This document shows, piece by piece, positions 11,935 to 30,515 of a stretch of 64,000 nucleotides of DNA. Within the stretch, counting starts at the first letter, position 1. The number at the start of each line of letters is the position of its first letter. Origin of the DNA: an uncultured Ignavibacteria bacterium (GTDB lineage: Bacteria; Zixibacteria; MSB-5A5; DSPP01; RBG-1); assembly GCA_964399055.1 (NCBI GenBank), contig CAYNPJ010000001.1:582935-646934 (forward strand), given 5' to 3'. The notes under the pieces were generated by a model. That model saw only the letters and a list, made by a program, of their open reading frames with translations, made no database searches and was not told where the DNA came from. A program made the position numbers and the translations under genes.

Positions 11935-12669
11935 ATGGTTGTAAGGTCGTACGCTTTGGTTTTAGTTTTGGCCGCGTGCTTATTGCCAGACTGTGGCCGG
12001 AGAAAGGCGGACGTGAAAGAACAGAGTCCGGAAGAAATCTGGAGGGCCCGAAGAGCCAAGATGGTCAAGGAGCAGATCGAAGACCGGGGGATAAAGGACA
12101 GTTTAGTCCTGGCGGCCATGCGCAAAGTCCCCCGGCATAAATTCATTCCCGAAGAATATGTTGAATTAGCCTACGTGGACGGACCTCTTCCAATTGGCAG
12201 CGAACAGACCATCTCCCAGCCTTACATCGTGGCGGTGATGACCGAACTCTTAAAACTCAAAAAAGGGGATAAAGTTCTGGAAATCGGGACTGGCTCTGGC
12301 TATCAATGTGCCGTGCTGTGTGAAATTGCAGATTCTGTCTACACCATTGAAATAGTCGAACCCTTGGGTTTGAAGGCAAATCAAACTTTAAAGCGCTTAG
12401 GTTACAAAAACTTTGAACTTAAGATTGGTGACGGCTACCAAGGCTGGCCGGAAAAAGCTCCCTTTGAGGGCATAATCGTCACCGCTGCGCCCGATCATAT
12501 TCCGGAGCCGCTCTACGAACAGTTAAAGATGGGAGGGAGAATGGTCATTCCAGTGGGGGAAGCAAACCAGGAGTTGTTGGTAATTACCAAGACCGAAAGA
12601 GGAATGGTTACCGAATCGGTTTTGCCGGTTAGATTCGTGCGGATGACCGGGGAAGCGGAGGAAAAGTAA
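11935..12669 (+). CDS. pcm: protein-L-isoaspartate O-methyltransferase
   Basis: Motifs GSEQTISQPYIVAVMTELL and VLEIGTGSGYQ (SAM-binding). Confidence 0.85.
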   Translation: MVVRSYALVLVLAACLLPDCGRRKADVKEQSPEEIWRARRAKMVKEQIEDRGIKDSLVLAAMRKVPRHKFIPEEYVELAYVDGPLPIGSEQTISQPYIVAVMTELLKLKKGDKVLEIGTGSGYQCAVLCEIADSVYTIEIVEPLGLKANQTLKRLGYKNFELKIGDGYQGWPEKAPFEGIIVTAAPDHIPEPLYEQLKMGGRMVIPVGEANQELLVITKTERGMVTESVLPVRFVRMTGEAEEK

Positions 12670-12766
12670 TTTCTGAAGTTTTGCAGGCTGTTGTACACAT
12701 CACTTCAACTTCTGAGATTTTTGAACCCTTTTCAATTTTTGCTCGTAAATAACAATCAGGAGGTGT

Positions 12767-13003
12767 ATGATGGCTAAAAGAATCTATCGCTCGAGAAAAG
12801 AAAAAGTGATAGCCGGAGTTTGCGGAGGTTTGGGCGACTATCTGGGAATTGATCCGGTTCTTATCAGAATAGTCTGGGTGGTGACGGTAATCTGTGCTGG
12901 CACCGGAATCTTGGCTTACATCTTAGCCTGGATTTTTATCCCCAAGGAGCCGGTCTTTCAACACAGATCAGAACCAGAGGCCCGGGCAGCGGCCAACGTC
13001 TAA
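12767..13003 (+). CDS. PspC-domain membrane protein
   Basis: IYRSRKEKVIAGVCGGLGDYLGIDPVLIRIVWVV is the canonical PspC domain, followed by a TM helix. Confidence 0.7.
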   Translation: MMAKRIYRSRKEKVIAGVCGGLGDYLGIDPVLIRIVWVVTVICAGTGILAYILAWIFIPKEPVFQHRSEPEARAAANV

Positions 13004-13024
13004 TCTTTCAAGAAAGAGGAAATT

Positions 13025-13471
13025 ATGAATCATAGAATCTACCGCAGTAGAAAAGAGTCGCTGATAGCCGGGGTGTGCGGCGGTTTAGGCGAATATTTTG
13101 ACATTGACCCGGTTATCATTCGGCTGATTTTCGTCCTGCTGATTTTTGCCGGAGGAGCAGGTTTAATCGGCTATATCATCGCCTGGATAATCATTCCCCA
13201 GGCGCCGGCAACCGGTACAGCCGAAAGCGCTGAAGTTCCTCCTCCGCCGGCACAAGGAGAAGCTCCCTCCACACCAGCGGCAGAGCGGAGAGAAAAAGGA
13301 GCCTATTTGACCGGATTGATACTAATCGTAATCGGAGGGGTTTTTCTCTTCAGCAATCTATTCCACTGGTTCGAATTCTGGGAGCTGTGGCCAGTGATTC
13401 TAATCGTCATCGGCGCGGTGATTGTGATAAAAGCCAAGGGGAGTAAAGATGAAGATCCAGCATCTGCGTAA
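13025..13471 (+). CDS. PspC-domain membrane protein (second copy, Pro/Ala-rich linker)
   Basis: IYRSRKESLIAGVCGGLGEYFDIDPVIIRLIFVL PspC domain plus two TM segments. Confidence 0.7.
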   Translation: MNHRIYRSRKESLIAGVCGGLGEYFDIDPVIIRLIFVLLIFAGGAGLIGYIIAWIIIPQAPATGTAESAEVPPPPAQGEAPSTPAAERREKGAYLTGLILIVIGGVFLFSNLFHWFEFWELWPVILIVIGAVIVIKAKGSKDEDPASA

Positions 13472-14366
13472 CGGAGTCATCTTAATCTCGGTCGGCCTGG
13501 TCTTTCTTTTCAACAACTTGGGTTATGTAGACTGGGAAGTGTGGGAGACAATTCTATCCTGGTGGCCGGTCTATTTAATCGCCATAGGCATAGAGATAGT
13601 CTTCCGCAATAGCGCCTTAAAACCCTTAGCCCTGATTTCGCCTTTAGCTTTCGCTTTTTTCATCTTGGGCCCGGCCTGGTGGCAGTGGGAGGGGAGGGAT
13701 GAAGACAGATTAGTGCAAAGAATAGAGTGGAACCAGCCTCTTTCCGAGCAAATCAATTCACTCCAGGCGAATTTAGAGTTCAGACTGGGATGTCTGAAAG
13801 TAGAAGATTCAGATAACCGTGTTGTAAACTGCATGATGGAATATCAGTCCAGAGAGCCTTATGTCGATTTTAGCGAAACAGAGGGGAAAGCCAAGTTGAC
13901 ACTGCAGGACAGGAGCAAAAAATACTGGGGAATCAGGGTTAATGAAGCAGGAGTAGAGTCAAACTGGGGAAGCCCTAAAGATAAAGACTGGAATGTAGCA
14001 TTCGATACGATAACTACCTTAGAGTTAGATTTGAGCTCTCAATTATCCAAGAATGAAATGGATTTGACTAAGATTAAAGCCGGCAAGTTAAAATTCTCTT
14101 TCCAGCTGGCCAAGGGAGATATTAAATTAGGTGATAAAATTGATACGTTGACAGTCGATTTAGACCTGGAGCTCTCGAAAGTGAATCTTTGGGTGCCGGA
14201 AGAGGCTGTGGTCTTTCTGGAAAAACACCTCTCCCTTTCTGGATTCTCTGATTCGAATGTGAAAATAGTCAGAGGCGAGAATAATGCTTCAAACATCTCA
14301 GGCCAGCCGGTAATCTTTGTCAACTATGAAGGGGCGCTCTCCAAACTGAATCTGAAGGGTTATTGA
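13449..14366 (+). CDS. LiaF-like membrane protein with beta-rich C-terminal domain (DUF4097/DUF2154-like)
   Basis: N-terminal multi-TM region and beta-rich C-terminal domain. Coupled with the PspC-domain genes, an envelope-stress module architecture. Confidence 0.4.
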   Translation: MKIQHLRNGVILISVGLVFLFNNLGYVDWEVWETILSWWPVYLIAIGIEIVFRNSALKPLALISPLAFAFFILGPAWWQWEGRDEDRLVQRIEWNQPLSEQINSLQANLEFRLGCLKVEDSDNRVVNCMMEYQSREPYVDFSETEGKAKLTLQDRSKKYWGIRVNEAGVESNWGSPKDKDWNVAFDTITTLELDLSSQLSKNEMDLTKIKAGKLKFSFQLAKGDIKLGDKIDTLTVDLDLELSKVNLWVPEEAVVFLEKHLSLSGFSDSNVKIVRGENNASNISGQPVIFVNYEGALSKLNLKGY

Positions 14367-15128
14367 TTGAGTTTGTCAAAGTTTTCATTTCTACTCCTAC
14401 CTTCTCTAATCTTAGCGTGCTCTTCTCCGCAGGTTGATACCTTAGACAAAATCAAGGAGTCGGGTAAATTTCTAATCGGCACTGATGCCACTTATCCGCC
14501 TTTCGAGAGCCAGGACCTGCAAACCGGTGAAGTAGCCGGGTTCGACATAGATTTGATGAAAACAATCTGCCAAAAGTTGGGCGTCCAGCCAGAATTCATA
14601 GTAGTTCCCTTTGACGGAATAATTCCGGGCTTAAACAATCATAAATACGATGCCATCATCTCGGCCTTCACCATCACCGTGGCCAGAGAAGAGGCAGTCG
14701 ACTTCACCGATCCCTATTACGTAGCCGGGCAGGTGATTGCCGTGCCTGTGCGAGATACAGTCATCAGAAACATGGGTGATTTGGAGGGAAAGAGAATCGG
14801 AGCCCAGTTAGGCACCACGGGTGAGATGTTAGCCAAGCAGATTACCAGAGGAGAGGTCATCAGCTTCGACAACATCTCAGCCGCCTTCATTGATATGGAG
14901 AATGGAAAGTTAGATGCTATTATCAATGACAAACCCACCACGCAGATGATTATCAAGGTGCGCAGGTCTGCCAAAATTGTGGGTCCGCTTTTGACTAAGG
15001 AGTCTTACGGAATCGCAGTACGGCAGGGGGATAATAAGCTTTTGGAAGTGTTAAATTCGGCTCTACAGCAGTTGAAGGAAGAGGGGGTGTTGGAGGAGTT
15101 GAATAAGAAGTGGATTAGTCGCCAGTAA
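14367..15128 (+). CDS. amino-acid ABC transporter substrate-binding lipoprotein
   Basis: Lipobox LILACSS. SBP_bac_3-like sequence with GTDATYPPFE and FDIDL. Confidence 0.8.
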   Translation: MSLSKFSFLLLPSLILACSSPQVDTLDKIKESGKFLIGTDATYPPFESQDLQTGEVAGFDIDLMKTICQKLGVQPEFIVVPFDGIIPGLNNHKYDAIISAFTITVAREEAVDFTDPYYVAGQVIAVPVRDTVIRNMGDLEGKRIGAQLGTTGEMLAKQITRGEVISFDNISAAFIDMENGKLDAIINDKPTTQMIIKVRRSAKIVGPLLTKESYGIAVRQGDNKLLEVLNSALQQLKEEGVLEELNKKWISRQ

Positions 15129-15267
15129 AAAGCGAGGTTATTGGCCCCTCCCTGCCCTCACCTCTAGGGGAGGGATTTGAACCATTCTCCTTCACTTAAT
15201 ATAATCAGCTTGACTTAGAAGCAATTCTCCAGCTAACTTGGGTTTTATTTTGAAACTGGAGGATTGA

Positions 15268-15945
15268 TTGGACTGGGTATCCCAGCAGTTAAACATCTGT
15301 CTGGAGATTCTGAAGTATTTGGCGCCGGCAGTGCCGATGACCATCAAGGTCACTCTGCTGTCGTTTGCCTTAGCTTTAATTTTAGGAACGATTATTTCCC
15401 TGCTCAGAATCTCGCATATTGCACCGTTGAAGTGGCTGACCAAGATTTATGTGGACGTTATTCGGGGGGTGCCGCTTTTGGTTCAGATTTTCTTCATTTA
15501 CTTCGGACTGGGGAAGGTTTTAAACTTAGACCGCTTTTTGGCCGGGGTGATTGCCATTGGAGTCTGTTACTCCGCTTATTTAGCAGAAATTATCCGGGCC
15601 GGAATTCAATCAGTGAGCAAGGGGCAGTACGAGGCCGCCTTATCCTTAGGCATGACCTTTCCTCAGACCATGCGCTATGTTATTTTTCCCCAGGCCTTAA
15701 GAGTCATTCTTCCTCCCACGGCCAATGAGTTTATCGCCAGTTTGAAAGACAGTTCTTTGGTCTCCATAATCGGTTTAAGAGAGTTAACCAGGGCGGGAAG
15801 AGAATATTACTCCCAGTATTTTGTGGATTTTCAGACGTGGCTGATGGTAGGCTTAATCTACTTGGCCTTAACTTTGAGCCTGTCGCGATTGGTAGCCTGG
15901 TTGGAGAAAAAATATAAAGTCTTGGGCTACGAGGCAGCGCACTGA
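15268..15945 (+). CDS. amino-acid ABC transporter permease
   Basis: EAA-loop [28 protein letters not shown]. Polar amino acid permease family. Confidence 0.85.
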
Positions 15946-16673
15946 TGATTGTTCAGGCTAAAAATGTTTCCAAGAGATTCGGCCACCTAAGGGCAGTCGA
16001 TTCGGTTTCCTGCACGGTAGATAGAGGGGAAGTAGTGGTCATCCTAGGTCCTTCCGGCTCCGGGAAAAGTACTTTCCTGCGCTGTTTAAATGGTCTGGAA
16101 AAAACTGATTCCGGAGAAATCATAATTGACGGCATAAAATTAGACCATGACAAAAGCGCCGTCCACCGAGTCAGGCAGAAAATCGGCATAGTATTTCAAC
16201 AGTTCAATCTCTTTCCCCATCTGTGTGTTCTGGATAATCTGACTTTAGCTCAGACCGTGGTTTTAGGCCGGCAGAAAAAAGAGGCCCTGAAGATTGCCGG
16301 CGAATATCTGCGCAAAGTCGGCCTGAAAGAGAAGGACAAAAATTTTCCGGCCCAGCTCTCTGGGGGACAGCAGCAGAGAGTGGCCATTGCCCGGGCCTTA
16401 GCTCTTAATCCGCAGATAATGTTATTCGATGAACCCACTTCCGCTTTGGACCCGGAGATGATAGGGGAAGTTTTAGAGGTGATGAAGAATTTAGCCCGGG
16501 AAGGGATGACCATGATAGTCGTCACCCATGAGCTGGGCTTTGCTGCAGAGGTGGCTGACCGGATGATTTTTATGGACCAGGGTAAAATCGTGGAAGAAGG
16601 CAAAGCAGAGAAGATTCTGAACAATCCTCAACAGGAGCGAACCAGACTATTTTTAAGCAAGGTGCTGAGATAG
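15945..16673 (+). CDS. amino-acid ABC transporter ATP-binding protein
   Basis: Walker [10 protein letters not shown], signature [15 protein letters not shown], Walker [12 protein letters not shown]. Confidence 0.9.
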
Positions 16674-19600
16674 TGGAGGTGACAGTGAAGAAGGCTTTGT
16701 TTTGTTGCATAATACTAGTATGGAGTTGGACCGGGGCACAGGCTTACTGGCAGCAGGAGGTGCATTACAAAATTGAGGCTGAATTCATTCCGAAAGAGGA
16801 CAAAATAGTAGGGCAGGAAACCCTGATTTACACCAACAACTCTCCGGATACTTTAAATAAAGTTTACTTTCATCTATATTTGAACGCCTTCCAGCCTGGG
16901 AGTCCAATGGATATCAAGTCCAGACAGGAAGAAGACTACAGCATCGCTGAGCTTGCGCCCAGGCAGTGGGGGAAGATGGAAATTAAGAAAGTCAAAATTA
17001 ATGGGAAAGAAATCGATAAATTTGAAATTGACTATACCGTAATGGAAATAATCTTGCCGTTGCCACTGCTTCCGAACCAAGAAACCGAAATCTACCTGGA
17101 GTTTGAAGACCAGATTCCCGTTTTCGGCGCCCGAACTGGCAAGCAGGGAAAGCACTATGATATCGGGCAGTGGTATCCCAAGATTGCGGTTTATGACCGC
17201 TATGGCTGGCATAATGAACAGTATTTAGGCACCGGGGAGTTTTACGGAGACTTTGGAAAGTTTGAAGTGACTTTCACGGCGCCGGAAGAGTACATTCTGG
17301 GTCATACGGGAGAATTGTTAAACCAGGAAGAACTGTTCCCCGGTCTGCCCAAAGCGGCTGAGGATACGGTTCTGGTGGACATCTTAAAAAAATATAAAGA
17401 GGACCAGGACAGCACCAAGTTAGAAATAATAGCGGGTAAGAATGCCAAGGGTGGAAATAATAAGAGGGAGGACAAATCTGATGAGGCGGATACGACTATA
17501 AAGAAAAGACCCTGGAAGATGCAGGCTGAAAATGTGCATGATTTCTTCATTGCTGCCAATCCGGATTTCATCTGGGACCGGGCTCAGTTGGGCGATATCA
17601 CTATCAATACCCTCTATCCAAAGGATGCTGCCAGAATTTGGCAGAAAAAAGCGGCTGAGGAGACCAAATTCTGTCTGCAATTCATGAGTGAAAAATTCGG
17701 CCAGTATCCTTACACTCAGTTTACCTCAGTGGCCGGAGCAGTCCGCGGCGGAATGGAGTATCCCCAGATTATCACCATGAGCAAGAAAATCGGGGACCCG
17801 GTCAGCCACCGTTTTTTTTCGGTCCTGGCGCACGAGATTGCCCACAACTGGTTTTACGGCTTAATCGGCAATAATGAGACCAGGCAGGCCTGCCTGGATG
17901 AGGGTTTTACCTCCTTTGCCACGATTTTGATGATGGAGGAGCGGTTCGGCAGATACAACAACTCCTACGAGTGGCAGAACTGGATTCAGAAGACTTTTTA
18001 CTCCAATGACGATGAGCGAACCGGCTATGCCCGAAGTTACTTAAAGCGAGCCAATCGCAAAGAGGAGGAGCCGATTGATACCCATTCGGACCGCTTTGTC
18101 AATCCGCGCAACTATCGTCTGGCTGTCTATAACAAGACCGCCAGCGTACTCTTTATGCTGCAATATGCTTTGGGAGACTCCCTCTTCGATTCAGCCATGC
18201 AGGAGTACTTCAACTGGTGGCACTGGAAACATCCTTATTTAGGTGATTTTCAAACTGTGATGGAGGATATGTCCAAACAGAGTCTAGAGTGGTTCTTTGA
18301 CGAGTGGTTTGAGAAGACCCGCAGGCTGGATTTCGGGATTGCCTCAGTCAAAAGTAAGAAGATAGAAGAATCGGGAAGAGGGTATCTGACTCAGGTCAAA
18401 GTCAAGAAAGAAAAAGAAGCGGTGATGCCTCTGGATTTGCAGTTTAAGCTAGCAGATGGAACGTTGCATACGGAAAAAATCCCGGTGGAGGTCTGGCTGG
18501 AAGAGAGGAAGGAATATGTGGCTTCCGTGGAGCTGCCAACGAAACCGAAGTCAGTGGAAATAAATCCAGACCAGAGGCTTCTAGATGTGAACCGGTTGAA
18601 TAACTACTTCGTTCCGGGCTTACCCTCACCGTTGCCAAAATTACGGTTCGACTATAACTATCTAAATAAGTATAATCCGGTGCCAGTAGATGCCTATCAG
18701 TTTCTCTTTAATCCCAGTTTTTGGTATAATGATGTAGATGGATTAAAATCCGGACTCAGGCTGAAAGGCTCCTACTTAGAGTGGAGCCATAATTCAAACT
18801 TAGCCCTGTGGATGGGGCCGATGAGCGGGAGATTTCATTATGACGTCTCCTGGAAAGAGCCGAGCTTCTGGCTGGGGCCGGTGACTTACTTAAATCTCAG
18901 GAGCTTCTACTCAGAGGGGAGACAGGGGGAAGAGGCCAGTCTCGAAAAGGTCAATCTAAGGATTCCAGGCTACCGGGAGTATTTCGAGCCGCAGGGAAGC
19001 AGGTACGGAGTTGGCATCTACACCTATAGACTGAAGAGTGAACGCTGGCTTCCTCCAGCTATCAGCTGGGATAGTGGTGATTTAAATCTAATCAAGGCTC
19101 ACTATTTGGGGATGTTTCCGGGAAGGTACTATGACCAGGAGTTTTCCGCAGAATTCTCAACCGATTTTTACCGCACTGATTTTAATTTGCATAAACTCTG
19201 GCTGGAATATAAGGGGGAATTGGATTTAAAAATCTCTCAGGTCTGGTCCTGGAGAGTCTCTTTCGGCTATGCCAACGGGAAATTGCCGGTTCAGGATAGA
19301 TTTTACCTGGCTTCGGCCTCTCCCTTAGAAGAATTTGCCAACAGCTGGTATAGAAGCAGAGGAAGTCTGCCCAATAAATGGCGAGAAGAGGGGAATTTGT
19401 ATATGCCAGGAGGAGGGAATGTCCGTGGCTATACCGAGATGATTCTCTCCGGCCAGAAGCTCTTCAGCCTGAATTTCAAATGGGCCTTTCCTAATTATCT
19501 GAAGTTAATTCCAGCAAGAGTTCCCTATCTATCCGAGCAGATTAATTCACTGAAATGGGACCTATTTTACGATTTCGGCTCAGTCTGGAATTCAGACGAC

Positions 19601-19789
19601 CCGCCTCCCTGGAAGGACTTCTTTCACGATGCCGGAATAGGATTGGTCTATGAGATTCCCTATCTTGACCAGATTTTTTCCGACAGCCGGGTCAGATTAG
19701 ATTTTCCTTTCTGGCTGGATAAACCCCAGGTTGGTGAAAAACATTTTAAATTCCGCTGGTTGTTTTCCATGGGCGGGGGAATCTTGTAA
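16673..19789 (+). CDS. M1-family zinc metallopeptidase fused to a C-terminal Omp85/surface-antigen-like beta-barrel
   Basis: Signal peptide. Gluzincin motif VLAHEIAHNWFYG...LDEGF (HExxH plus E at 18 aa). The C-terminal roughly 400 aa are aromatic-rich and carry the GGNVRGY motif reminiscent of the Omp85 L6-loop VRGY/F. Confidence 0.55.
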   Translation: MEVTVKKALFCCIILVWSWTGAQAYWQQEVHYKIEAEFIPKEDKIVGQETLIYTNNSPDTLNKVYFHLYLNAFQPGSPMDIKSRQEEDYSIAELAPRQWGKMEIKKVKINGKEIDKFEIDYTVMEIILPLPLLPNQETEIYLEFEDQIPVFGARTGKQGKHYDIGQWYPKIAVYDRYGWHNEQYLGTGEFYGDFGKFEVTFTAPEEYILGHTGELLNQEELFPGLPKAAEDTVLVDILKKYKEDQDSTKLEIIAGKNAKGGNNKREDKSDEADTTIKKRPWKMQAENVHDFFIAANPDFIWDRAQLGDITINTLYPKDAARIWQKKAAEETKFCLQFMSEKFGQYPYTQFTSVAGAVRGGMEYPQIITMSKKIGDPVSHRFFSVLAHEIAHNWFYGLIGNNETRQACLDEGFTSFATILMMEERFGRYNNSYEWQNWIQKTFYSNDDERTGYARSYLKRANRKEEEPIDTHSDRFVNPRNYRLAVYNKTASVLFMLQYALGDSLFDSAMQEYFNWWHWKHPYLGDFQTVMEDMSKQSLEWFFDEWFEKTRRLDFGIASVKSKKIEESGRGYLTQVKVKKEKEAVMPLDLQFKLADGTLHTEKIPVEVWLEERKEYVASVELPTKPKSVEINPDQRLLDVNRLNNYFVPGLPSPLPKLRFDYNYLNKYNPVPVDAYQFLFNPSFWYNDVDGLKSGLRLKGSYLEWSHNSNLALWMGPMSGRFHYDVSWKEPSFWLGPVTYLNLRSFYSEGRQGEEASLEKVNLRIPGYREYFEPQGSRYGVGIYTYRLKSERWLPPAISWDSGDLNLIKAHYLGMFPGRYYDQEFSAEFSTDFYRTDFNLHKLWLEYKGELDLKISQVWSWRVSFGYANGKLPVQDRFYLASASPLEEFANSWYRSRGSLPNKWREEGNLYMPGGGNVRGYTEMILSGQKLFSLNFKWAFPNYLKLIPARVPYLSEQINSLKWDLFYDFGSVWNSDDPPPWKDFFHDAGIGLVYEIPYLDQIFSDSRVRLDFPFWLDKPQVGEKHFKFRWLFSMGGGIL

Positions 19790-19851
19790 TATTTTACTTG
19801 ACTTAAGACAGTCAATCCCTATTTTACCGGCACAAACGGAGGATGGAAAAA

Positions 19852-19929
19852 ATGTGCAAGACCTGTGCGGCCCACAATCCCGGCAAGAAGGGAAGCAAGA
19901 AGGGAATGAAGGGGACTAAGAAGAAATAA
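19852..19929 (+). CDS. possible 25-aa Cys/Lys-rich small protein
   Basis: RBS GGAGGA 8 nt upstream of the ATG. Product is MCKTCAAHNPGKKGSKKGMKGTKKK and is followed by an intrinsic terminator. Speculative. Confidence 0.25.
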   Translation: MCKTCAAHNPGKKGSKKGMKGTKKK

Positions 19930-19954
19930 TAGCCCCCAGCAAAGGATGGCCTTG

Positions 19955-19986
19955 AGCCCCGATTGAATCGGGGCTCATTTTTTTTG
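19955..19986 (+). terminator. rho-independent terminator
   Basis: GAGCCCCGATT-GAAT-CGGGGCTC stem-loop followed by T8. Confidence 0.6.
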
Positions 19987-20157
19987 TAGGCCCCTACTGC
20001 TTACCTAGTTTTCCTCCTCCGCTTATTGACTTGATATTGGAGGGGTAAATAGTTATAATTTTCACAAGTGAGACAGAGGAAAATGGACCGGCAGATGAAT
20101 TATTTAGCCAGAGATGTTGGAAATAAGATAGCTCAAAAAATAATTTAAGGAGGATTT

Positions 20158-21006
20158 ATGGAGATTAAAAAGGTTGGATTAGTGGGCTGCGGTCTGATGG
20201 GCTCAGGAATCGCCGAGACCTGCGGCAAGGCCGGCTACGGTGTCACGGTCACCGAAGCCAATGAGCAGGCCTTAAAGAAGGGGCAGGAGAGAATCACCAA
20301 ATCGCTGGATAGAGCGGTAGAAAAGGGCAAAGCCACTGCCGAGCAGAAGCAGAAGACCCTGGAGCTTTTGACATTTACGCCGAAGTTAGAAGATTTGAAA
20401 GACAGCGACATCGTTATCGAAGCCGTGGTGGAAAACATGGAGGAGAAGAAAAAAATCTGGAAGACCCTTGACCCTCTCTGCCGGCCAGAGGCTATTTTTG
20501 CATCCAACACCTCCTCTTTATCCATTGTAGAGATGGCTTCAGTCACCAAGAGAGCCAGCCGGATGTTAGGCTTGCATTTTTTTAATCCGGTGCCGGTGAT
20601 GAAGTTAGTGGAGATGGTAAAACCAATCACAGTGGACGAAGAAGTTTTCACCACCACCCGGAAATTCGCCGAATCCTTGGGCAAGACCGTCATAGTGGCC
20701 AAAGACACGCCCGGATTTATCGTCAATCTGCTTTTAATCCCCTATTTACTTGACGCGATACGCGCCTTAGAGAAGGGAATCGGCACCAAGGAAGACATTG
20801 ATGCCGGCATGACCTTGGGCTGCGGACATCCGATGGGACCCCTTACCCTGACCGACTTTATCGGCTTAGACACCACTTACTTCATTGCCGAAGCCATGTA
20901 TAAAGAATTCAAAGACCCGCGCTATGCCTCTCCCCCTTTGCTAAAGAGCATGGTGATTGCCGGCTATCATGGTCGAAAGAGTGGCCGAGGATTTTACACT
21001 TACTAA
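20158..21006 (+). CDS. hbd: 3-hydroxybutyryl-CoA dehydrogenase
   Basis: NAD-binding VGLVGCGLMGSGIAE. 3-hydroxyacyl-CoA dehydrogenase N- and C-terminal domains. Confidence 0.85.
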   Translation: MEIKKVGLVGCGLMGSGIAETCGKAGYGVTVTEANEQALKKGQERITKSLDRAVEKGKATAEQKQKTLELLTFTPKLEDLKDSDIVIEAVVENMEEKKKIWKTLDPLCRPEAIFASNTSSLSIVEMASVTKRASRMLGLHFFNPVPVMKLVEMVKPITVDEEVFTTTRKFAESLGKTVIVAKDTPGFIVNLLLIPYLLDAIRALEKGIGTKEDIDAGMTLGCGHPMGPLTLTDFIGLDTTYFIAEAMYKEFKDPRYASPPLLKSMVIAGYHGRKSGRGFYTY

Positions 21007-21009
21007 GGG

Positions 21010-21798
21010 ATGGATATGAATTACCAGAACATCTTATTGGAAAAGGAAGATAGGTTAGCGGTCATAACCATCAATCGTCCCAATGTTTTGAATGCCCTAA
21101 ATGACCAGACCATATCCGAGCTGCATCAGTGTCTACGAGAGATTTCCAGAGAAGCAGATGTCAGAGTCGTCATCCTCACCGGGGCAGGAGAGAAGGCCTT
21201 TGTGGCCGGAGCTGATATTAACGAGCTAAAGGTCTGCGACTCCCTTTCCGGGCATAGAAAATCTGTAAATGGCCAGAGCTTGTTAAACCATATCGAGAAT
21301 ATGGAACAGGTGGTGATTGCCGCCATTAATGGCTTTGCCTTAGGCGGTGGGTGTGAGTTAGCTTTGGCCTGCGATATCAGAATTGCCTCGGAGAACGCTA
21401 AATTAGGGCAGCCGGAAGTTAATTTAGGTATAATCCCGGGTTACGGAGGCACCCAGAGATTATCTCGCCTGGTCGGCAGAGGAAAAGCCAAGGAGCTGAT
21501 TTTCACCGGCGATATGGTAGATGCCCAAGAGGCTTTAAGAATCGGTCTGGTGGAAAAAGTCGTTCCTCTGCCGGAGCTTTTGAAAACCGCCAAAGAGATA
21601 GCCCAGAAGATTATTTCCAAGGGTCCCTTGGCCATTAAGGCGGCCAAGCGGGCGATTAATTTGGGTCTGAACGTGGATTTGAAATCTGGCTTGGATTATG
21701 AAGCCATGGAGTTCTCAGCCATCTGCGCCACAGAAGACAAGAGCGAAGGAACCTCGGCATTTTTGGAAAAGAGGAAGCCGGATTTTAAGGGAAAGTAG
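21010..21798 (+). CDS. enoyl-CoA hydratase (crotonase family)
   Basis: Crotonase fold motifs AAINGFALGGGCELALACDIRIA and ...GGTQRL. Confidence 0.85.
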   Translation: MDMNYQNILLEKEDRLAVITINRPNVLNALNDQTISELHQCLREISREADVRVVILTGAGEKAFVAGADINELKVCDSLSGHRKSVNGQSLLNHIENMEQVVIAAINGFALGGGCELALACDIRIASENAKLGQPEVNLGIIPGYGGTQRLSRLVGRGKAKELIFTGDMVDAQEALRIGLVEKVVPLPELLKTAKEIAQKIISKGPLAIKAAKRAINLGLNVDLKSGLDYEAMEFSAICATEDKSEGTSAFLEKRKPDFKGK

Positions 21799-21848
21799 AA
21801 GATTCCGTCAGTTACTGTTTCGCCTATTATTACAATGATAAATTCTCA

Positions 21849-21877
21849 GGGGCTGGTTGCAAAGCCAGCCCTTTTTA
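21849..21877 (+). terminator. rho-independent terminator
   Basis: GGGGCTGG-TTGCAAA-GCCAGCCC followed by TTTTT. Confidence 0.55.
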
Positions 21878-21962
21878 TTATTCAATTTGAATTTTTAATT
21901 ATAATTCTTAATTTAATGTCCCTGATTTAACGGGAAAAAGACTGAATCTTTAAGGAGGAAAA

Positions 21963-22541
21963 ATGGCAGGCGAGATAAAGATTACCAAGAAGTTCATCGC
22001 TTTCTTTTTCGGTGGAATTGTCCTGGCGGTATTTCTGGGTATCGTGGCCGGGCAGTATTTCAATGAGTGGAGGTTAAAGCGGGCACAAGAGAAGTTGATG
22101 AAGGAAAACCCTCCTATTACTTTGAAGGAAGGGGACATTATTCCCAATTTCACCTTTGCCAACCTGGATGGAAAACAGGAGGGAATCTACCAGATTCTGC
22201 AGTATGACAAGGCGGTGCTGATGCTGATGAGCACCTCTTGCGGTTTCTGCGCCAAGGAGATTGAAAAGTGGAAGGCCGAGCTAGCCACCCTGCCGGAGGA
22301 TGTGCAGTTAATCGGAATCTCCGCGGACTCGCTTGACAAATTAGTTTCTTACAGCCAGGAGAAGCAGATTTCTTTCCCCATGCTGTGCGATATGGCGGGC
22401 AAGTTCTTTGAGCAGTATCAGGTGAAGAGCTTTCCGGTTTTGGTCTTGGTGGACGCCAATAAAAAAGTGGTCAAGATTATGTCCGGCTATGACGCCAAGA
22501 AGAAGGTCAAAGATTACGTCAAGATGCTGGCCATGAAGTAG
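21963..22541 (+). CDS. membrane-anchored TlpA/ResA-like thiol-disulfide oxidoreductase
   Basis: N-terminal TM helix. Thioredoxin-fold CxxC motif STSCGFCAKE. Confidence 0.7.
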   Translation: MAGEIKITKKFIAFFFGGIVLAVFLGIVAGQYFNEWRLKRAQEKLMKENPPITLKEGDIIPNFTFANLDGKQEGIYQILQYDKAVLMLMSTSCGFCAKEIEKWKAELATLPEDVQLIGISADSLDKLVSYSQEKQISFPMLCDMAGKFFEQYQVKSFPVLVLVDANKKVVKIMSGYDAKKKVKDYVKMLAMK

Positions 22542-22581
22542 TTCCGTTTTCAGGCAGAACAAATTTAAGACAGAATTCAAG

Positions 22582-22609
22582 CACTCCGACAAAATCGGAG
22601 TGTTTTTTT
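22582..22609 (+). terminator. rho-independent terminator
   Basis: CACTCCGA-CAAAA-TCGGAGTG followed by T7. Confidence 0.55.
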
Positions 22610-22650
22610 CAAATGGATTAACCCGGAAATTTGTAGTATCTTTAGTTAAT

Positions 22651-24045
22651 ATGAGTGAGATCAAAGAAAAAGAGATTTTAGATGCCCTGCGCTCGGTCAA
22701 AGACCCGGATTTGGGCCGGGACATTGTCGAGTTGGGCTTCGTCAAGAATCTTAAGATTGTAGGTGAGAAAGCTTCCTTCACCATTGAGCTAACCACTCCG
22801 GCCTGTCCGGTCAAGGATCGACTGAAAGAGGAAGCCAGAGGAGCCGCCCTTTCAGTTCCTGGAATAAAAGAGGCTGAAATCCAGATGACCGCCAGAGTCC
22901 GCCCCAGTCTGTCAAGACAGAAAGAAGAGTTGATTCCCCGGGTCAAGAATGTCATTCCCATAGCCAGCGGCAAAGGAGGAGTGGGAAAATCGACAGTCAG
23001 CGCCAATTTAGCCGTGGCTCTGGTGCAGATGGGCGCTAAAGTGGGTTTAATGGACGCAGATGTTTACGGGCCCAGCATCCCCAGAATAATGGGAGTCACC
23101 CAGAGTCCGCAGGTCTTACCCGGCAACAAAGTAATTCCGCCGGAAGAGCAGGGAGTGAAAATTATCTCTATGGGTTTTTTCTTAAGGGAAGGAGAGGCAG
23201 TGGTCTGGCGGGGACCGATGCTGCACAAAACCATTCAGCAATTCTTAGGTGACGTGGAATGGGGGGAGTTAGATTACCTAATCGTCGATTTACCGCCTGG
23301 CACCGGAGACGTTCAGTTAAGCATCTGCCAGACCATCCCTTTAACCGGAGCAGCCATAGTCTCCACTCCTCAGGATGTGGCTTTAAAAGTGGCTGAAAAG
23401 GCCATTGTCATGTTCAAGAAGCTCAACACTCCAATTCTGGGAATGATTGAGAACATGAGCGGATTTGTCTGCTCTTCTTGCGGCCAGAAAAATGACATCT
23501 TCGGAAGCGGAGGAGCCAGAGAATACAGTCTGGAAAACGGCATTCCCTTTTTAGGAGAAATTCCCCTGGATACTAATCTGCGTCTGAGTTCAGATGCAGG
23601 CATACCCATAGTCAAAAGCTCCCCTGATTCAGCAGTGGCCAAAGCTTTCCAGCAGATAGCCCGGAATTTAGCCGCCCAGGTGAGCATCAAGAATTTAGGT
23701 GGAACTGTTGCCCGCTTAGCCCCCAGGCAGGTCAGCCAGCCGGATGTCAGTCACCTGAAAATTGTCTGGAATGACGGGCATGAAAGTATTTACTCAACTT
23801 ATGCACTAAGAACAGCCTGCCAGTGTGCGGTCTGCGTGGATGAGATGAGTGGACATAAAAAACTAAAACCGGAAGAGGTTGACCCTAAGATTCTCATTTT
23901 AGGAATCAATCCAGTAGGACAATATGCACTGCAGTTCCGCTTCAGTGACGGACATTCCACCGGCATATATGCTTTTGATTATCTGCGCTCTTTATGTAAT
24001 TGCTCCGAATGTCAGTCTAAAGCCAATGTAAAGATTTCAGGCTAG
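22651..24045 (+). CDS. apbC: Mrp/NBP35-family Fe-S cluster carrier ATPase with N-terminal DUF59 and C-terminal DUF971 domains
   Basis: P-loop IASGKGGVGKST and CxxC SSCGQ. N-terminal MIP18-like region. C-terminal Cys-rich DUF971-like tail. Start moved to the ATG after the upstream terminator. Confidence 0.8.
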   Translation: MSEIKEKEILDALRSVKDPDLGRDIVELGFVKNLKIVGEKASFTIELTTPACPVKDRLKEEARGAALSVPGIKEAEIQMTARVRPSLSRQKEELIPRVKNVIPIASGKGGVGKSTVSANLAVALVQMGAKVGLMDADVYGPSIPRIMGVTQSPQVLPGNKVIPPEEQGVKIISMGFFLREGEAVVWRGPMLHKTIQQFLGDVEWGELDYLIVDLPPGTGDVQLSICQTIPLTGAAIVSTPQDVALKVAEKAIVMFKKLNTPILGMIENMSGFVCSSCGQKNDIFGSGGAREYSLENGIPFLGEIPLDTNLRLSSDAGIPIVKSSPDSAVAKAFQQIARNLAAQVSIKNLGGTVARLAPRQVSQPDVSHLKIVWNDGHESIYSTYALRTACQCAVCVDEMSGHKKLKPEEVDPKILILGINPVGQYALQFRFSDGHSTGIYAFDYLRSLCNCSECQSKANVKISG

Positions 24046-24275
24046 CAAATGAAATCTCTTTACTGTCTTCTTTCTTGAAGTAACGGTTCGAGTTGCGTCC
24101 GGGCAATTCTGCCAAACATAGGACTATTCTGCCCGTAAAAACTCAGAGAAAAAGGTTGACTTTTGAAAATTAAAGAGAAATATTAAATATTTATTATTCT
24201 GAATGCCTGTCAGGATTGATTTCCTTGCCAAGCAAGATAGAAGCATAAAATAGCATAAGAGGAGAGAAAAAATTT

Positions 24276-25337
24276 ATGCCTGTAAACGCCAAGTTGGCGA
24301 CCAAGCCCAAGCAGGAGACCAGCCTGCCCTTTACCTCGGTAGAGGAGGCCAGAAAGCTCTATTACCTCCTGCTTAAGTGCCGGCTGGTGGACGAAGCCAA
24401 CCGCAAGCACTTCCGCACCGGGAAGTTCTTAGGGACCTATTATTCCGCAGTTGGGCAGGAAGCCACTACCGTAGTTCCGGCCTTTCTACTTAAACCTGAA
24501 GACGTGATTGCCCCCCAGCACCGAGAGATTGGCTGCAGTATCGGGCGGCAGGTCCCCTTGAAGCTGATGTTAGCCCACAACATGGGGCGCAGAGCTGGAT
24601 TTGACAAAGGAAAGAATCACCCTTGCCACTATGGCGGCAGTCAGTGGAATATTATTAACCCGGCTTCCACGATGGCGGCCCAGACTGTAGTGGGAAGCGG
24701 CTGCGCCCTGGCTTTCAAATTACAGAAGAGAGATAACGTTGTCATCGCCTTCACCGGCGAAGGCGGAACTTCCCAGGCCGGCTGGCATGAGGCCTGCAAC
24801 TTGGCCGGAGTTCACAAGCTCCCCATGATTTTCATCTGTCAGAATAACCTCTGGGCAGAATCGGTGCCAGCCAGCCTTCAGGCCGGGATAACGGATTTTT
24901 CCGACCGGGCCAAGGCCTACGGCTTTCCCGGAATCACTATTGACGGCAATGACGTAATTGCGGTTTACACCACGGTCAAGGAGGCCATAGCCCGGGCCAG
25001 AAAAGGAGAAGGTCCCACCTTAATCGAGATGAAGACTTACCGCTGGTACGGCCACTCGGAAATCGACCCGGCTGATTACCGGACCAATGATGAGGTAGAG
25101 GAGTGGAAGAAGAAAGACCCTTTGCCCCGCTTTGAAAAATTTCTGCTGGAGCGGGGAGTCATTACTCAGGCTGAAGTCGAAGAGCTGACCGCTCAGATTA
25201 AAAGAGAGCATGAAGAGGCTTCGGATTGGGCGGCCAACTCCCCCTTGCCGGCCCCGGAAGAAGCCATCGAAGACGTTTACGTACCCGGCACCAGAGTAGA
25301 GGAGATGCACCGTGAGCAGAACCGTAACTTTCATTGA
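24276..25337 (+). CDS. 2-oxoacid dehydrogenase E1 component alpha subunit (TPP-dependent)
   Basis: TPP-binding region GEGGTSQAGWHEACNLAG...IFICQNN. Operon position upstream of E1beta-E2-E3. Confidence 0.8.
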   Translation: MPVNAKLATKPKQETSLPFTSVEEARKLYYLLLKCRLVDEANRKHFRTGKFLGTYYSAVGQEATTVVPAFLLKPEDVIAPQHREIGCSIGRQVPLKLMLAHNMGRRAGFDKGKNHPCHYGGSQWNIINPASTMAAQTVVGSGCALAFKLQKRDNVVIAFTGEGGTSQAGWHEACNLAGVHKLPMIFICQNNLWAESVPASLQAGITDFSDRAKAYGFPGITIDGNDVIAVYTTVKEAIARARKGEGPTLIEMKTYRWYGHSEIDPADYRTNDEVEEWKKKDPLPRFEKFLLERGVITQAEVEELTAQIKREHEEASDWAANSPLPAPEEAIEDVYVPGTRVEEMHREQNRNFH

Positions 25338-26298
25338 TGCCATAACCGAGGCGATGAGAGAGGAGATGGAGCGGGATGAAACCGTCTATCTCATCGGCGA
25401 GGACATAGGAATTTATGGCGGAGTCTTCAAAGCCACCAAAGGCTTACAGAAACAATTCGGCGAATACAGAGTAATAGACTCGCCCTTATCCGAAAACGTA
25501 ATAGTCGGCTCCTCCATCGGCGCGGCGATACAGGGCATGAGGCCGGTGCCGGAGATTCAGTTCTCCGATTTTATCACCCCGGCTATGGACCAGATTGTCC
25601 AGCAAGCGGCCAAGCTGCGCTACCGCTCCGGCGGGGATTACAAGATTCCCATGACCATCCGGGTCTGCTGCGGCGGAGAAGTGGGGGGCGGCCTGTATCA
25701 CTCCCAGATTAACGAAGCCTGGTTTGTCCACACGCCCGGATTAGTGGTGGTGGCTCCTTCCACCCCTTATGATGCCAAGGGCCTGCTCAAAGCCTCTATC
25801 AGAGACGACAACCCGGTAATCTTCTTCGAGCACAAAAAACTCTACCGCTCCATTAAGGCTGAAATTCCAGACGGAGACTACACCATCCCCTTGGGCTCTG
25901 CTGATATCAAGCGACCGGGCAAGCATGTCACCATCATTACCTACATGCTAATGCTGCACAAGTCCCTTAAGGCGGCCGAAGAGTTAGCCCAAGAGGGGAT
26001 TGAATGCGAAGTGATTGACCTGCGGACAATTTACCCGATTGACAAACAGACCATTTTGGAATCGGTCAAAAAGACCGGCAAAGTTGTAATAGTGGTAGAA
26101 GCTCCCAAGACCGGCTCAGTGGCCGGAGAGCTTTCTGCCATTATCTCCGAGGAGGTCTTTGAATATCTGGATGCCCCCATCATCAGGGTTTGCGGACCGG
26201 ACACACCGCCGATTCCCTTCTCCCCACCCATGGAGCACTTTTGGCTTCCCAGCCCGGAGAGGATCATCAAGGCGGTCAAGCACGTGGTCAATTATTAG
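25312..26298 (+). CDS. 2-oxoacid dehydrogenase E1 component beta subunit
   Basis: Transketolase-like pyrimidine-binding and C-terminal domains, with typical E1beta conservation (IGEDIG.YGGVFK). Confidence 0.85.
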   Translation: MSRTVTFIDAITEAMREEMERDETVYLIGEDIGIYGGVFKATKGLQKQFGEYRVIDSPLSENVIVGSSIGAAIQGMRPVPEIQFSDFITPAMDQIVQQAAKLRYRSGGDYKIPMTIRVCCGGEVGGGLYHSQINEAWFVHTPGLVVVAPSTPYDAKGLLKASIRDDNPVIFFEHKKLYRSIKAEIPDGDYTIPLGSADIKRPGKHVTIITYMLMLHKSLKAAEELAQEGIECEVIDLRTIYPIDKQTILESVKKTGKVVIVVEAPKTGSVAGELSAIISEEVFEYLDAPIIRVCGPDTPPIPFSPPMEHFWLPSPERIIKAVKHVVNY

Positions 26299-26306
26299 GA
26301 GGACCG

Positions 26307-27599
26307 ATGGCAATAGAGATAGTGATACCCCAGTTAGGCGAGTCGGTAGTAGAGGGGACCATTTCCAAATGGCTCAAGAAGGAAGGGGATAAAATCGACA
26401 AGGATGAGCCGCTGGTCGAAATTGCCACGGATAAAATCAACATCGAGATTCCTTCACCCAAGGCCGGCACTTTAGGAAAAATCATTGTTAAAGAAGGCAC
26501 AGTGGTTCCGGTCGGCGAGTTGATAGGCTTATTAGCCGAGCCGGGAGAATCTTTAGATTCGCTCAAGGCTCCGGCTGGAGTCAAAACCGAGAAGGGAGTA
26601 GAAAAGCCTTCTTCCGCACCAACCACTTCTGGAGCTGCCTCAGAAACAGAAGCAGTTGAGACAGACCACAAACGTCTCTCTCCGGCGGTCAGACGGCTGG
26701 TGAAGGAACATAACTTAGATGTCAACAGGATAAGAGGGACCGGCTCCGAAGGCCGCATCACCCGAGACGATGTCTTAGCTTACATTGAGCAGTCGAAATC
26801 CGCTCCGGCACCTGCCAGGGCCGAGACCGCTCCCAAACCAGCTCCCAAGACAGTTCCCACATATGCCCCTTCGGCTCCAGCAGGGCCACGAGAAGAGATT
26901 ATCCCCATGACCCAGGTGCGAAGAATCATTGCCGAGCACATGACAAAAAGCGCCTACACGGCCCCGCATGTCACCACCTGGGATGAATTCGACTGTACCA
27001 AATTGGTAGAAATACGGGAGAAGCTAAAAATCATTGCTCAGGAAAAATACAACATCAAGCTGACTTATATGCCTTTGATTGCCAAGGCCTCGGTGATGGC
27101 ATTGAAGGAATATCCCTTGGTAAACGCTTCCCTTGAGGGTGAGAATATCCGCCTGAAAAAATTCTACAACATCGGCATGGCCGTGGGCCGTGACTCCGGT
27201 CTTATCGTGGTAGTGGTCAAGGACTGCGACAAGAAGTCGCTCTTGCAGATTGCTTCGGAGATGACCCAATTGGGTGAGAAAGCCCGGACCGATAAGCTGA
27301 CCTTAGATGAGATTCAGGGAAGCACTTTTACCCTGACCAATGCAGGGATGTACGGCGCACTGGCCTCTACTCCGATAATTAATTACCCCGAGGTAGCCAT
27401 CTTAGGACTGCATATGATTCAGAAGCGTCCGGCGGTGGTTGACAACCAGATTGTGATCCGGGAGATGATGACCGCCTGTTTATCTTTTGACCACCGTCTG
27501 ATTGACGGCCACTATGCAGTCCAATTTTTACACCGCATTAAATACTTCATAGAGCATCCGGATGAGTGGCTCTTGAGCGCGGTCTTGGATGCAGTTTAG
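26307..27599 (+). CDS. dihydrolipoamide acyltransferase E2 component
   Basis: RBS AGGAGG precedes the ATG at 26307. Lipoyl domain IATDKINIEI, E3-binding LSPAVRRLVKEHNLD, catalytic DHRLIDG. Confidence 0.85.
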   Translation: MAIEIVIPQLGESVVEGTISKWLKKEGDKIDKDEPLVEIATDKINIEIPSPKAGTLGKIIVKEGTVVPVGELIGLLAEPGESLDSLKAPAGVKTEKGVEKPSSAPTTSGAASETEAVETDHKRLSPAVRRLVKEHNLDVNRIRGTGSEGRITRDDVLAYIEQSKSAPAPARAETAPKPAPKTVPTYAPSAPAGPREEIIPMTQVRRIIAEHMTKSAYTAPHVTTWDEFDCTKLVEIREKLKIIAQEKYNIKLTYMPLIAKASVMALKEYPLVNASLEGENIRLKKFYNIGMAVGRDSGLIVVVVKDCDKKSLLQIASEMTQLGEKARTDKLTLDEIQGSTFTLTNAGMYGALASTPIINYPEVAILGLHMIQKRPAVVDNQIVIREMMTACLSFDHRLIDGHYAVQFLHRIKYFIEHPDEWLLSAVLDAV

Positions 27600-27673
27600 G
27601 TAGAAAATATGCCTTGCTTTCAGAAGAGTGGTAGGGGTCTGCCACTCTTTTTAATTCCCTAGAAAGGAAGAAT

Positions 27674-29790: not shown

Positions 29791-29873
29791 ATCGGAAAAT
29801 ACCTCTTCTAAAAGAAAGAGGAACTAAATCCCCTCTCCTATGAGGGGAGGGTTAGGGAGGGGTTAGTTATTTT

Positions 29874-29977
29874 CGTCATTGCGAGGAGAGCCGATATATC
29901 GGCTCGACGTGGCAATCCCCCAGAATAAACGCTCGGTATCCATTCACTGGAATCACCACGCCCCGAGTGGCCGGGGC
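29874..29977 (+). repeat. MITE-like element with terminal inverted repeats CGTCATTGCGAG / CTCGCGATGAC
   Basis: 11/12-nt TIR in a 104-nt non-coding unit. The same left TIR recurs at 35604. Confidence 0.4.
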
Positions 29978-30503: not shown

Positions 30504-30515
30504 AAAGGAGAAGAG

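Follow-up and report, generated by a model that had tools for sequence, protein, structure and literature searches.

A predicted M1 peptidase–Omp85 barrel fusion, widespread in the FCB group, as a candidate outer-membrane-anchored aminopeptidase facing the periplasm

Why would one polypeptide carry both a complete zinc peptidase and an outer-membrane β-barrel, and on which side of the membrane would such an enzyme work? The question is raised by a single open reading frame (ORF) in a 64,000-nucleotide stretch of DNA (hereafter, the window) from an uncultured Ignavibacteria bacterium that GTDB places in the Zixibacteria (assembly GCA_964399055.1, contig CAYNPJ010000001.1, positions 582,935 to 646,934 of the forward strand). 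We refer to the encoded protein as M1-Omp85. An earlier note on this DNA had proposed that one chain joins a complete M1 catalytic core to a C-terminal Omp85 barrel with an L6 loop motif, and this is borne out by Pfam, by AlphaFold2 prediction, by profile searches of the PDB and by Foldseek. The domain architecture, catalytic residues, Omp85 identity, operon arrangement and distribution of the protein were established computationally, and from them we infer an outer-membrane location, a periplasmic orientation, exopeptidase activity and a nutritional role. The reading that we favor, with a probability of roughly 0.55, is that M1-Omp85 is an outer-membrane-anchored, periplasm-facing M1 aminopeptidase that turns oligopeptides into amino acids for a co-transcribed importer.

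The N-terminal module of M1-Omp85 belongs to peptidase family M1. Residues 327–545 (all residue numbers refer to the 1038-aa form of the protein) match Pfam Peptidase_M1 (PF01433) with an expect value (E) of 3.9e-21 and 76.1 bits (cutoff 27.7). Pfam Peptidase_M1_N misses domain I, whose sequence has diverged too far for it, and NCBIfam yields only weak partial PepN and BamA matches for the protein. Among PDB sequences, the profile of the module matches ColAP, PSA, F3 and LTA4H. When the whole model is compared with the PDB by Foldseek, about 650–690 columns align with IRAP, ERAP1/2, APN, PepN and F3 (E ~1e-22), and the columns shared with IRAP, ERAP, PepN and F3 span M1 domains I–III.

The HEXXH-X18-E zinc motif is complete, with H387, H391 and the third ligand E410 aligning with HELAH...NEG of ColAP; the HEIAH (387–391)...E410 signature and the GGNVRGY motif of the barrel (914–920) are both present, as the earlier note had stated. 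Across alignment A1, which holds 40 sequences of homologues 30–76% identical to the query, G360, E362, H387, E388, H391, D409, E410, Y486 and K488 are invariant. GGMEY aligns with GGMEN of ColAP and retains the GxME glutamate (E362); the asparagine of GxMEN is replaced by tyrosine throughout A1, or by phenylalanine in one sequence. The profile segment “avYeKtasvl” aligns with PYVKG of ColAP, SYSKG of PSA and SYGKG of F3, which marks the catalytic tyrosine. The glutamate of the GXMEN exopeptidase motif binds the free amino group of the substrate. Since the zinc site, the general base, the transition-state tyrosine and the amine-anchoring glutamate are all kept, the conserved residues argue for an active exopeptidase.

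Long M1 enzymes typically carry a helical domain IV that caps the active site, although this domain is not universal in the family. A domain IV of the ERAP1_C type is absent from the AlphaFold2 prediction of M1-Omp85 and has no Pfam match; in sequence order, the barrel takes the place after domain III that belongs to domain IV in canonical M1 enzymes. Of the defining features of family M1 that we tested, domain IV is the only one lacking. M1-Omp85 thus shares HEXXH-X18-E, the GxME glutamate, the YxK tyrosine and the folds of domains I–III with PepN, ERAP1/IRAP, F3, LTA4H and ColAP, and differs from these enzymes in being exported rather than cytosolic, in having GGMEY for GAMEN, and in carrying a membrane barrel instead of domain IV.

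The C-terminal module is of the Omp85 type. The AlphaFold2 model of the full-length protein, built from A1, has a predicted local distance difference test (pLDDT) score of 88.6 and a predicted template modeling (pTM) score of 0.86, and lays out a signal helix (residues 2–22), domain I (29–315) and 16 β-strands between residues 675 and 1033, the strand number that the earlier note had anticipated. A model of residues 632–1038 alone also contains 16 strands (pLDDT 85.2, pTM 0.82). Pfam Omp85 (PF01103) matches residues 813–1026 (E 6.5e-7, 29.6–30.8 bits against a cutoff of 24), so that PF01103 and Peptidase_M1, the two families named in the earlier note, are both above their cutoffs. A profile of the C-terminal region (alignment A2), searched against all PDB sequences, gave significant matches to BamA chains only (best E 2e-6). 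The top 50 Foldseek matches of the barrel-only model are all BamA, in many states, or Sam50, with E values of 7e-11 to 1e-8, TM-scores of 0.43–0.51 and about 420 aligned columns. A soluble β-sandwich or ERAP-like C-terminus was rejected on account of the predicted 16-strand barrel and of these fold and sequence matches, all to BamA or Sam50; the β-sandwich at residues 554–630 precedes the barrel.

As in BamA and Sam50, its best matches, the predicted barrel combines 16 strands with an L6 (V/I)RG(Y/F) motif between strands 11 and 12 and an FxDxG motif on strand 13. It differs from them in sequence (~14% identity, at the TM-scores given above), in the absence of POTRA domains, and in that nothing indicates insertase activity. 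POTRA-like domains, for which the earlier note had advised a search, were found neither by Pfam at E ≤ 1 nor in the predicted secondary structure of M1-Omp85, and the Pfam scan of the protein gave no match to DUF5982. Heinz and Lithgow (2014; PMC4104836) distinguished ten bacterial Omp85 subfamilies, including patatin-Omp85, WD40-Omp85, PF00149 ‘Metallo’-Omp85 and noNterm. The noNterm and Metallo barrels resemble M1-Omp85 in having no POTRA domain, and Metallo proteins carry a non-POTRA enzyme domain at the N-terminus (PMC4104836), so the missing POTRA does not exclude membership of the superfamily. In the other superfamily features that we tested M1-Omp85 conforms to Omp85, the 16-strand barrel being a prediction.

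Both lid-lock motifs of Omp85 proteins, VRGY in L6 and FxDxG on strand 13 as defined in earlier work (PMC11358297), are present in M1-Omp85. In A1, the L6 arginine (R918) and the strand-13 aspartate (D967) occur together in 27 sequences and are both missing from 9; the aspartate occurs without the arginine in 4 sequences and the arginine without the aspartate in none. This is the pattern that a conserved salt bridge between L6 and strand 13 would be expected to leave, and the nine double losses probably represent about two clades rather than independent events. A subclade of Zixibacteria type (P0008, P0010, P0015, P0018, P0023, P0038, P0039, P0040 and P0043) lacks both residues: VRGY has become LYGY, MPGY, LSGY or LGGY, and the aspartate of FxDxG is gone. 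There the lid-lock pair, which counts as a conserved trait of Omp85 proteins, has been lost jointly.

The protein is predicted to be exported by the Sec pathway. The longest form of the ORF, 16673..19789 on the + strand, has 1038 codons counted from a GTG. A GGAGG Shine-Dalgarno sequence at 16675–16679 is ideally spaced from a second GTG at 16685, which is therefore the most likely true start and would give a product of 1034 aa; a database protein (P0001) is 1034 aa long and 100% identical to this product. Signal peptide cleavage is predicted to precede Y25-W-Q-Q (MKKALFCCIILVWSWTGAQA, followed by YWQQ). An equivalent signal peptide, with a conserved (W/F)QQ right behind it at the start of the mature protein, is present in most aligned homologues; three begin without a signal peptide and are probably truncated gene calls. 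Anchoring as a lipoprotein was rejected, since the cysteines in the signal peptide lie outside any lipobox and are not conserved among homologues. The GC content of the gene (46.8%) is close to that of the window (46.4%), and no paralogue of M1-Omp85 was found within the window.

A linker of 44 residues joins the two modules. Its motif D-x-N-R-L-N-N (638–644) is the last conserved element of the M1 module, and residues 657–661 (LRFDY) form an amphipathic strand that is predicted in both models, is specific to the fusion and shows alternating aromatic residues across the family. The linker contains neither a helix nor a β-α-α-β-β unit in the AlphaFold2 prediction. Residues 632–660 are predicted to pack on the M1 module, because their pLDDT is about 90 in the full model versus 42–73 in the barrel-only model. 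The pTM of the full model (0.86) exceeds the 0.61 attainable from the larger module alone (61% of the chain), which implies that AlphaFold is confident of the relative placement of the two modules and points to a rigid assembly of M1 domain and barrel.

A fixed geometry of this kind would also suit a peptidase coupled to a channel, in which the barrel serves as a conduit for peptides, its periplasmic mouth replaces the domain IV lid, and the incoming peptides feed the active site. The barrel stands exactly at the domain IV position after domain III, the predicted extracellular loops L4, L7 and L8 are of modest length (11–15 residues), so that the extracellular dome could be incomplete, and the operon linkage to an amino-acid importer described below would fit. 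We nevertheless consider such coupling distinctly unlikely. The L6 lid-lock is conserved save in one subclade, and L6 fills the lumen in known Omp85 proteins; no nutrient-diffusing Omp85 channel is known, and the M1 modules that occur without a barrel work without such a lid.

The periplasmic orientation of the M1 module is inferred from homology. By the strand register of BamA, strand 1 begins at the periplasmic face, and the linker has no segment able to thread a lumen occupied by L6. Relatives without a barrel are likely to be soluble exported enzymes, since they keep the signal peptide and end right after NRxNN. The closest precedent points the same way: in PlpD, the sole studied enzyme–Omp85 fusion, once described as type Vd secretion, the enzyme domain stays in the periplasm (PMC11116518). 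PlpD and FplA resemble M1-Omp85 in joining an N-terminal hydrolase to a C-terminal 16-strand Omp85 barrel, with the enzyme held at the outer membrane. A short β-signal-like segment of PlpD that lies outside the barrel may pair with it (PMC11116518), and its counterpart here would be the strand at 657–661. Unlike M1-Omp85, a zinc peptidase without POTRA, PlpD is a patatin phospholipase with one POTRA domain and forms a dimer.

The earlier note had instead suggested a surface-anchored peptidase that uses its own barrel, by an autotransporter or two-partner logic within one chain. The M1 module would then reach the cell surface by being exported or carried by the barrel, much as in type V secretion, and would serve as a cell-bound ectoenzyme for environmental peptides. 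The order of enzyme and barrel does mimic that of an autotransporter passenger and its barrel, the carriers are heterotrophs of sediment and soil in which peptidase genes are numerous, amino acids freed at the surface would still get to the ABC (ATP-binding cassette) importer, and conservation is higher in the short loops on the L6 side than in the periplasmic turns. Autotransporters with enzyme passengers, such as EstA and NalP, have a 12-strand barrel, a linker helix that runs through the pore, and a surface-exposed passenger. M1-Omp85 has the N-terminal hydrolase and C-terminal barrel of EstA and NalP, but neither the 12 strands nor the pore helix; it has 16 predicted strands, an L6 plug with lid-lock motifs, and a short linker free of helix. 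The structural hallmarks of type V secretion (Va, Vb and Vd) that we looked for, namely a linker helix, POTRA domains, a two-partner secretion (TPS) domain and a β-helix, were all absent.

Several further points make surface display unlikely. The module is a compact zinc enzyme of about 600 aa, the prototype PlpD has been shown to be periplasmic, and the N-terminus of strand 1 is placed in the periplasm by homology. The L1 motif occurs also in stand-alone barrels that have no passenger. Moreover, the lineage appears to have a type IX secretion system (T9SS) for that purpose: a protein encoded at 2185–3885 (+) in the window combines a Lamin Tail Domain with a CHU_C type IX secretion sorting domain, which suggests that the host has a T9SS, in line with its affiliation to the FCB (Fibrobacteres–Chlorobi–Bacteroidetes) group. 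A dedicated route to the surface thus appears available, and M1-Omp85 does not use it.

A broader proposal covers both of these alternatives, that of a single-chain outer-membrane peptide-processing machine whose barrel either lids and feeds the M1 chamber or displays the peptidase by a POTRA-independent route. We regard it as doubtful, though not negligible. If true, such a machine would give Omp85 barrels a nutrient-acquisition function so far undescribed for the superfamily, and surface display would in addition point to a widespread molecular origin of the cell-bound aminopeptidase activity of sediments and soils.

The nutritional role in our favored reading, that of a periplasm-facing anchored aminopeptidase, draws on the genomic context. 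Immediately upstream of the fusion gene, a polar amino-acid ABC importer is encoded by genes for a substrate-binding protein (SBP), a permease and an ATPase. The ATPase gene stops with a TAG at 16671–16673, a 1-nt overlap with the longest M1-Omp85 ORF, and no terminator-like site was found at the junction of the two genes, so M1-Omp85 appears to be co-transcribed with the importer. The strong terminator-like hairpin downstream of the fusion, which is followed by a promoter-like site ahead of the next gene, probably ends the transcription unit. In three other loci (L006, L007 and L014) the same SBP, permease and ATPase genes, with products 58–69% identical, stand directly upstream of an M1-Omp85 protein that is only 32–42% identical. 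Elsewhere the neighbors of homologues are genes for an S8 peptidase, M16 peptidases, asparaginase II or an aminotransferase. The overlap with the ATPase stop codon, the lack of an intervening terminator and the terminator at 19953, together with the recurrence of the importer in three other lineages, these neighbors and the downstream catabolic genes, are the grounds on which we propose a nutritional role.

Given these features, we propose that the protein is exported by Sec and that its POTRA-less Omp85-type barrel enters the outer membrane, presumably via the β-barrel assembly machinery (BAM), where it would act mainly as a rigid membrane anchor. M1 domains I–III would remain in the periplasm, fixed against the barrel, and the enzyme would remove N-terminal residues from oligopeptides arriving there. 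The freed amino acids could be imported by the polar amino-acid ABC importer of the same operon and could supply the downstream amino-acid and acyl-CoA catabolic genes.

The genomic context also bears on a further alternative, envelope quality control, in which the barrel seam would bind the β-signals of unfolded outer-membrane proteins and the peptidase would degrade stalled or misfolded ones, much as BepA does at BAM. The barrel conserves Omp85 hallmarks, the fusion-specific, β-signal-like strand 657–661 precedes strand 1, and the gene adjoins envelope-stress genes (PspC and LiaF-like) in some Zixibacteria and has Tol-Pal genes nearby at the RBG-1 locus. For another enzyme–Omp85 subfamily, a role in periplasmic quality control has been suggested by Heinz and Lithgow (PMC4104836). 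We find this role very improbable for M1-Omp85, since the invariant GxME glutamate argues for exopeptidase action, with a free N-terminus anchored, over endoproteolysis, the recurrent neighbors are genes of amino-acid transport and peptide catabolism, and several paralogues per genome (P0045 and P0111) fit nutrition better than housekeeping.

Several observations weigh against the reading of a periplasm-facing aminopeptidase anchored for nutrition. A universal linkage to the importer had to be rejected, as it holds only for the window and for L006, L007 and L014 among the 87 loci examined. Confined to one clade, the linkage is missing at all Bacteroidota and Gemmatimonadota loci, at the RBG-1 and CP070742 loci and at some Zixibacteria loci. 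At the position that we take to be that of the amine-binding glutamate in domain I of ERAP1 (QFEP) and PepN, M1-Omp85 appears to have a tyrosine, Tyr168 (QWYP); together with the change of asparagine to tyrosine in GxMEN, this means that strict aminopeptidase specificity is not assured. Conservation is low in the periplasmic turns of the barrel (0.17–0.35) and high in the short loops L1 and L3 (0.6–0.8), which are putatively extracellular, and this pattern gives no hint that a conserved docking surface exists on the periplasmic side. Finally, the conserved lid-lock motifs suggest that the barrel may do more than anchor. Conservation of loops versus turns was set aside as a guide to the docking face: the L1 motif WYNxxDG and the L6 motif are also kept in stand-alone barrels without an M1 module, are thus intrinsic to the barrel, and make the comparison uninformative.

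The fusion is common. A word-indexed protein search returned more than 7000 matches, and the best 120 are nearly all full-length, at about 1000 aa, and come from Zixibacteria, KSB1, Gemmatimonadota, Eisenbacteria, Kryptonia and Bacteroidota. A Zixibacteria RBG-1 protein is 51% identical to M1-Omp85. The names given to these 120 proteins are “M1 family metallopeptidase” or “aminopeptidase N”, and Omp85 is flagged in only six. When 1.84 billion cluster representatives were searched with a profile of the barrel, 1418 matched at E ≤ 1e-3, of which 280 also reached E ≤ 1e-30. Most of the matching proteins are about 1000 aa long, and their barrel spans roughly residues 600–1000. Full-length relatives form about 280 clusters at 50% identity across the FCB group, a large conserved family by these sequence counts. 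A scan of one genome per species yielded 80 loci, whose architecture was read by analysis of ORFs and hidden Markov models. The fused form occurs among them in Cytophagia, Chitinophagales (including the cultured Taibaiella soli R1-15, locus L022, NZ_QKTW01000001.1), Ignavibacteria, Candidatus Chrysopegis (Kryptonia), Krumholzibacteriota, Gemmatimonadales, Marinimicrobia, Latescibacterota and Caldithrix. Two paralogues, P0045 and P0111, lie on the same 5.04-Mb contig.

Each module also exists on its own. M1 modules without a barrel are about 600–650 aa long, have a signal peptide and end within a few residues after D-x-N-R-x-N-N; they are found mainly in Gemmatimonadaceae (L046, L051, L055, L060, L066 and about 30 other loci). 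A split arrangement, with a separate M1 gene beside a separate barrel gene, was rejected, because the 40 loci with a barrel-less M1 module gave no match to the barrel profile in any frame. Conversely, complete barrels of about 400–417 aa (P0190, P0207, P0237 and P0256) have a signal peptide, begin at strand 1 and are homologous to the fusion barrel (E ~1e-45 to 1e-58). Balneolales are one group in which such barrels are found, under the annotation “hypothetical”. None of these four matches PF01103 or any other Pfam family, and they appear to constitute an unannotated POTRA-less Omp85 subfamily. PF01103 is reached by only 6 of 20 fused barrels, and the M1-Omp85 architecture has gone unannotated because the Pfam family misses most of its barrels. 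Five loci from Flavobacteriales and other Bacteroidota (L047, L048, L063, L070 and L084) encode proteins of about 1000 aa in which the same M1 module precedes some 400 residues that show a barrel-like alternation of aromatics and a motif resembling YNxxDG. These proteins match neither the barrel profile nor a Pfam Omp85 family and their L6 motif is unrecognizable; they may carry a more divergent barrel.

A Peptidase_M1 module at the N-terminus is not among the ten Omp85 subfamilies of the 2014 classification (PMC4104836), and we found no description of the M1-Omp85 architecture in searches of full-text literature. Two papers from 2024, on PlpD (PMC11116518) and on noNterm proteins of Leptospira (PMC11358297), do not mention it. 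The earlier note had called the architecture unusual, which stands in the sense that it is missing from the classification and from the literature found, and falls in the sense that it belongs to a large conserved family and is not a one-off. M1-Omp85 is a real, widespread, under-annotated and undescribed non-POTRA Omp85 subfamily among the enzyme–Omp85 fusions. Omp85 proteins have been studied almost solely as protein insertases and translocases; recent work on PlpD revealed another use of the scaffold, in which it keeps an enzyme on the inner side of the outer membrane. M1-Omp85 would be a second enzyme-holding example, much larger and phylogenetically broader, present in most FCB-group phyla and in cultured Chitinophagaceae. 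It is a concrete candidate for envelope-bound aminopeptidase activity in peptide-degrading bacteria of sediment and soil, and the coexistence of fused and separate modules offers a natural test of what the barrel contributes to the enzyme.

Table 1. Coordinates of M1-Omp85, its parts and the adjoining importer in the window
Feature	Residues	Position in window	Strand	Basis
M1-Omp85 fusion gene (likeliest start; longest ORF from 16673)		16685..19789	+	Shine-Dalgarno site; identity to P0001
Predicted Sec (type I) signal peptide MKKALFCCIILVWSWTGAQA		16685..16744	+	Sequence; homologues; AlphaFold2 helix 2–22
M1 domain I, β-rich	25–315	16745..17617	+	AlphaFold2 strands and pLDDT; Foldseek
K/E/D-rich, disordered, lineage-specific insert in domain I	246–275	17408–17497	+	Column conservation 0.15
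M1 catalytic thermolysin-like domain, helical	316–550	17618..18322	+	Pfam PF01433; alignments
GGMEY	359–363	17747–17761	+	Catalytic domain motif
HEIAH	387–391	17831–17845	+	Catalytic domain motif
Zinc ligand E410	410	17900–17902	+	Catalytic domain
Catalytic Tyr486 in VYNKT	486	18128–18130	+	Catalytic domain; profile alignment
M1 domain III-like small β-sandwich	554–630	18332..18562	+	AlphaFold2; F3 profile alignment covers region
Linker	631–674 (44 residues)	18563..18694	+	AlphaFold2; conservation; barrel-less and stand-alone relatives
Predicted Omp85-type 16-strand outer-membrane β-barrel without POTRA	675–1038	18695..19786	+	AlphaFold2; PF01103; PDB profile; Foldseek
Loop L6, between strands 11 and 12	871–928 (58 residues)	19283..19456	+	AlphaFold2; alignment
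VRGY within GGGNVRGY (913–920) of L6	917–920	19421–19432	+	Alignment
FYDFG on strand 13	965–969	19565..19579	+	FxDxG lid-lock partner of L6 arginine
Polar amino-acid ABC importer, directly upstream		14367..16673	+	Linkage recurs in L006, L007, L014
SBP_bac_3 lipoprotein		14367–15128	+	
ABC permease		15268–15945	+	
ABC ATPase		15945–16673	+	
Intrinsic terminator-like hairpin (11-bp stem, 7 GC pairs, then T run)		19953..19987	+	

Beyond the transcription unit, the fusion gene is followed at 20158–31724 (+) by genes for a 3-hydroxyacyl-CoA dehydrogenase, an enoyl-CoA hydratase, the E1 alpha, E1 beta, E2 and E3 components of a 2-oxoacid dehydrogenase, a lipoate ligase and an acyl-CoA dehydrogenase, a set that would fit the catabolism of branched-chain amino acids or of fatty acids. 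A redoxin and an Mrp/NUBPL-type Fe-S ATPase fused to a GBBH-like domain break the run. Upstream of the importer, at 11935–14366 (+), genes for PCMT, PspC and a LiaF-like protein stand in an order that is common to the Zixibacteria loci L003 and L007. Between this block and the fusion lies the ABC importer in the window and in L007, and a 4HBT thioesterase in L003. Synteny of the PCMT-PspC-LiaF block and of the 3HCDH-ECH pair is shared with loci of relatives, and together with the 51% identity to the RBG-1 protein it suggests a genome of Zixibacteria type.

Between the stop codon of the fusion and the terminator lies a small ORF, 19852–19929 (+), that encodes a lysine-rich peptide of 25 aa (MCKTCAAHNPGKKGSKKGMKGTKKK) and has its own GGAGGA Shine-Dalgarno sequence at 19838–19843. 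Its conservation at 3203–3286 of locus L005, the contig of a 76%-identical relative, with an in-frame one-codon indel and a few substitutions, suggests that it is a real small protein. At E ≤ 1e-5, no Pfam match was obtained for the ORFs of 282–633 aa at 575–2197, 42566–44467, 40364–41482, 6339–7349 and 32517–33365 (+). The window also encodes large repeat proteins, an FG-GAP protein at 60472–63231 and SBBP β-propeller proteins at 46625–48259 and 52340–53878.

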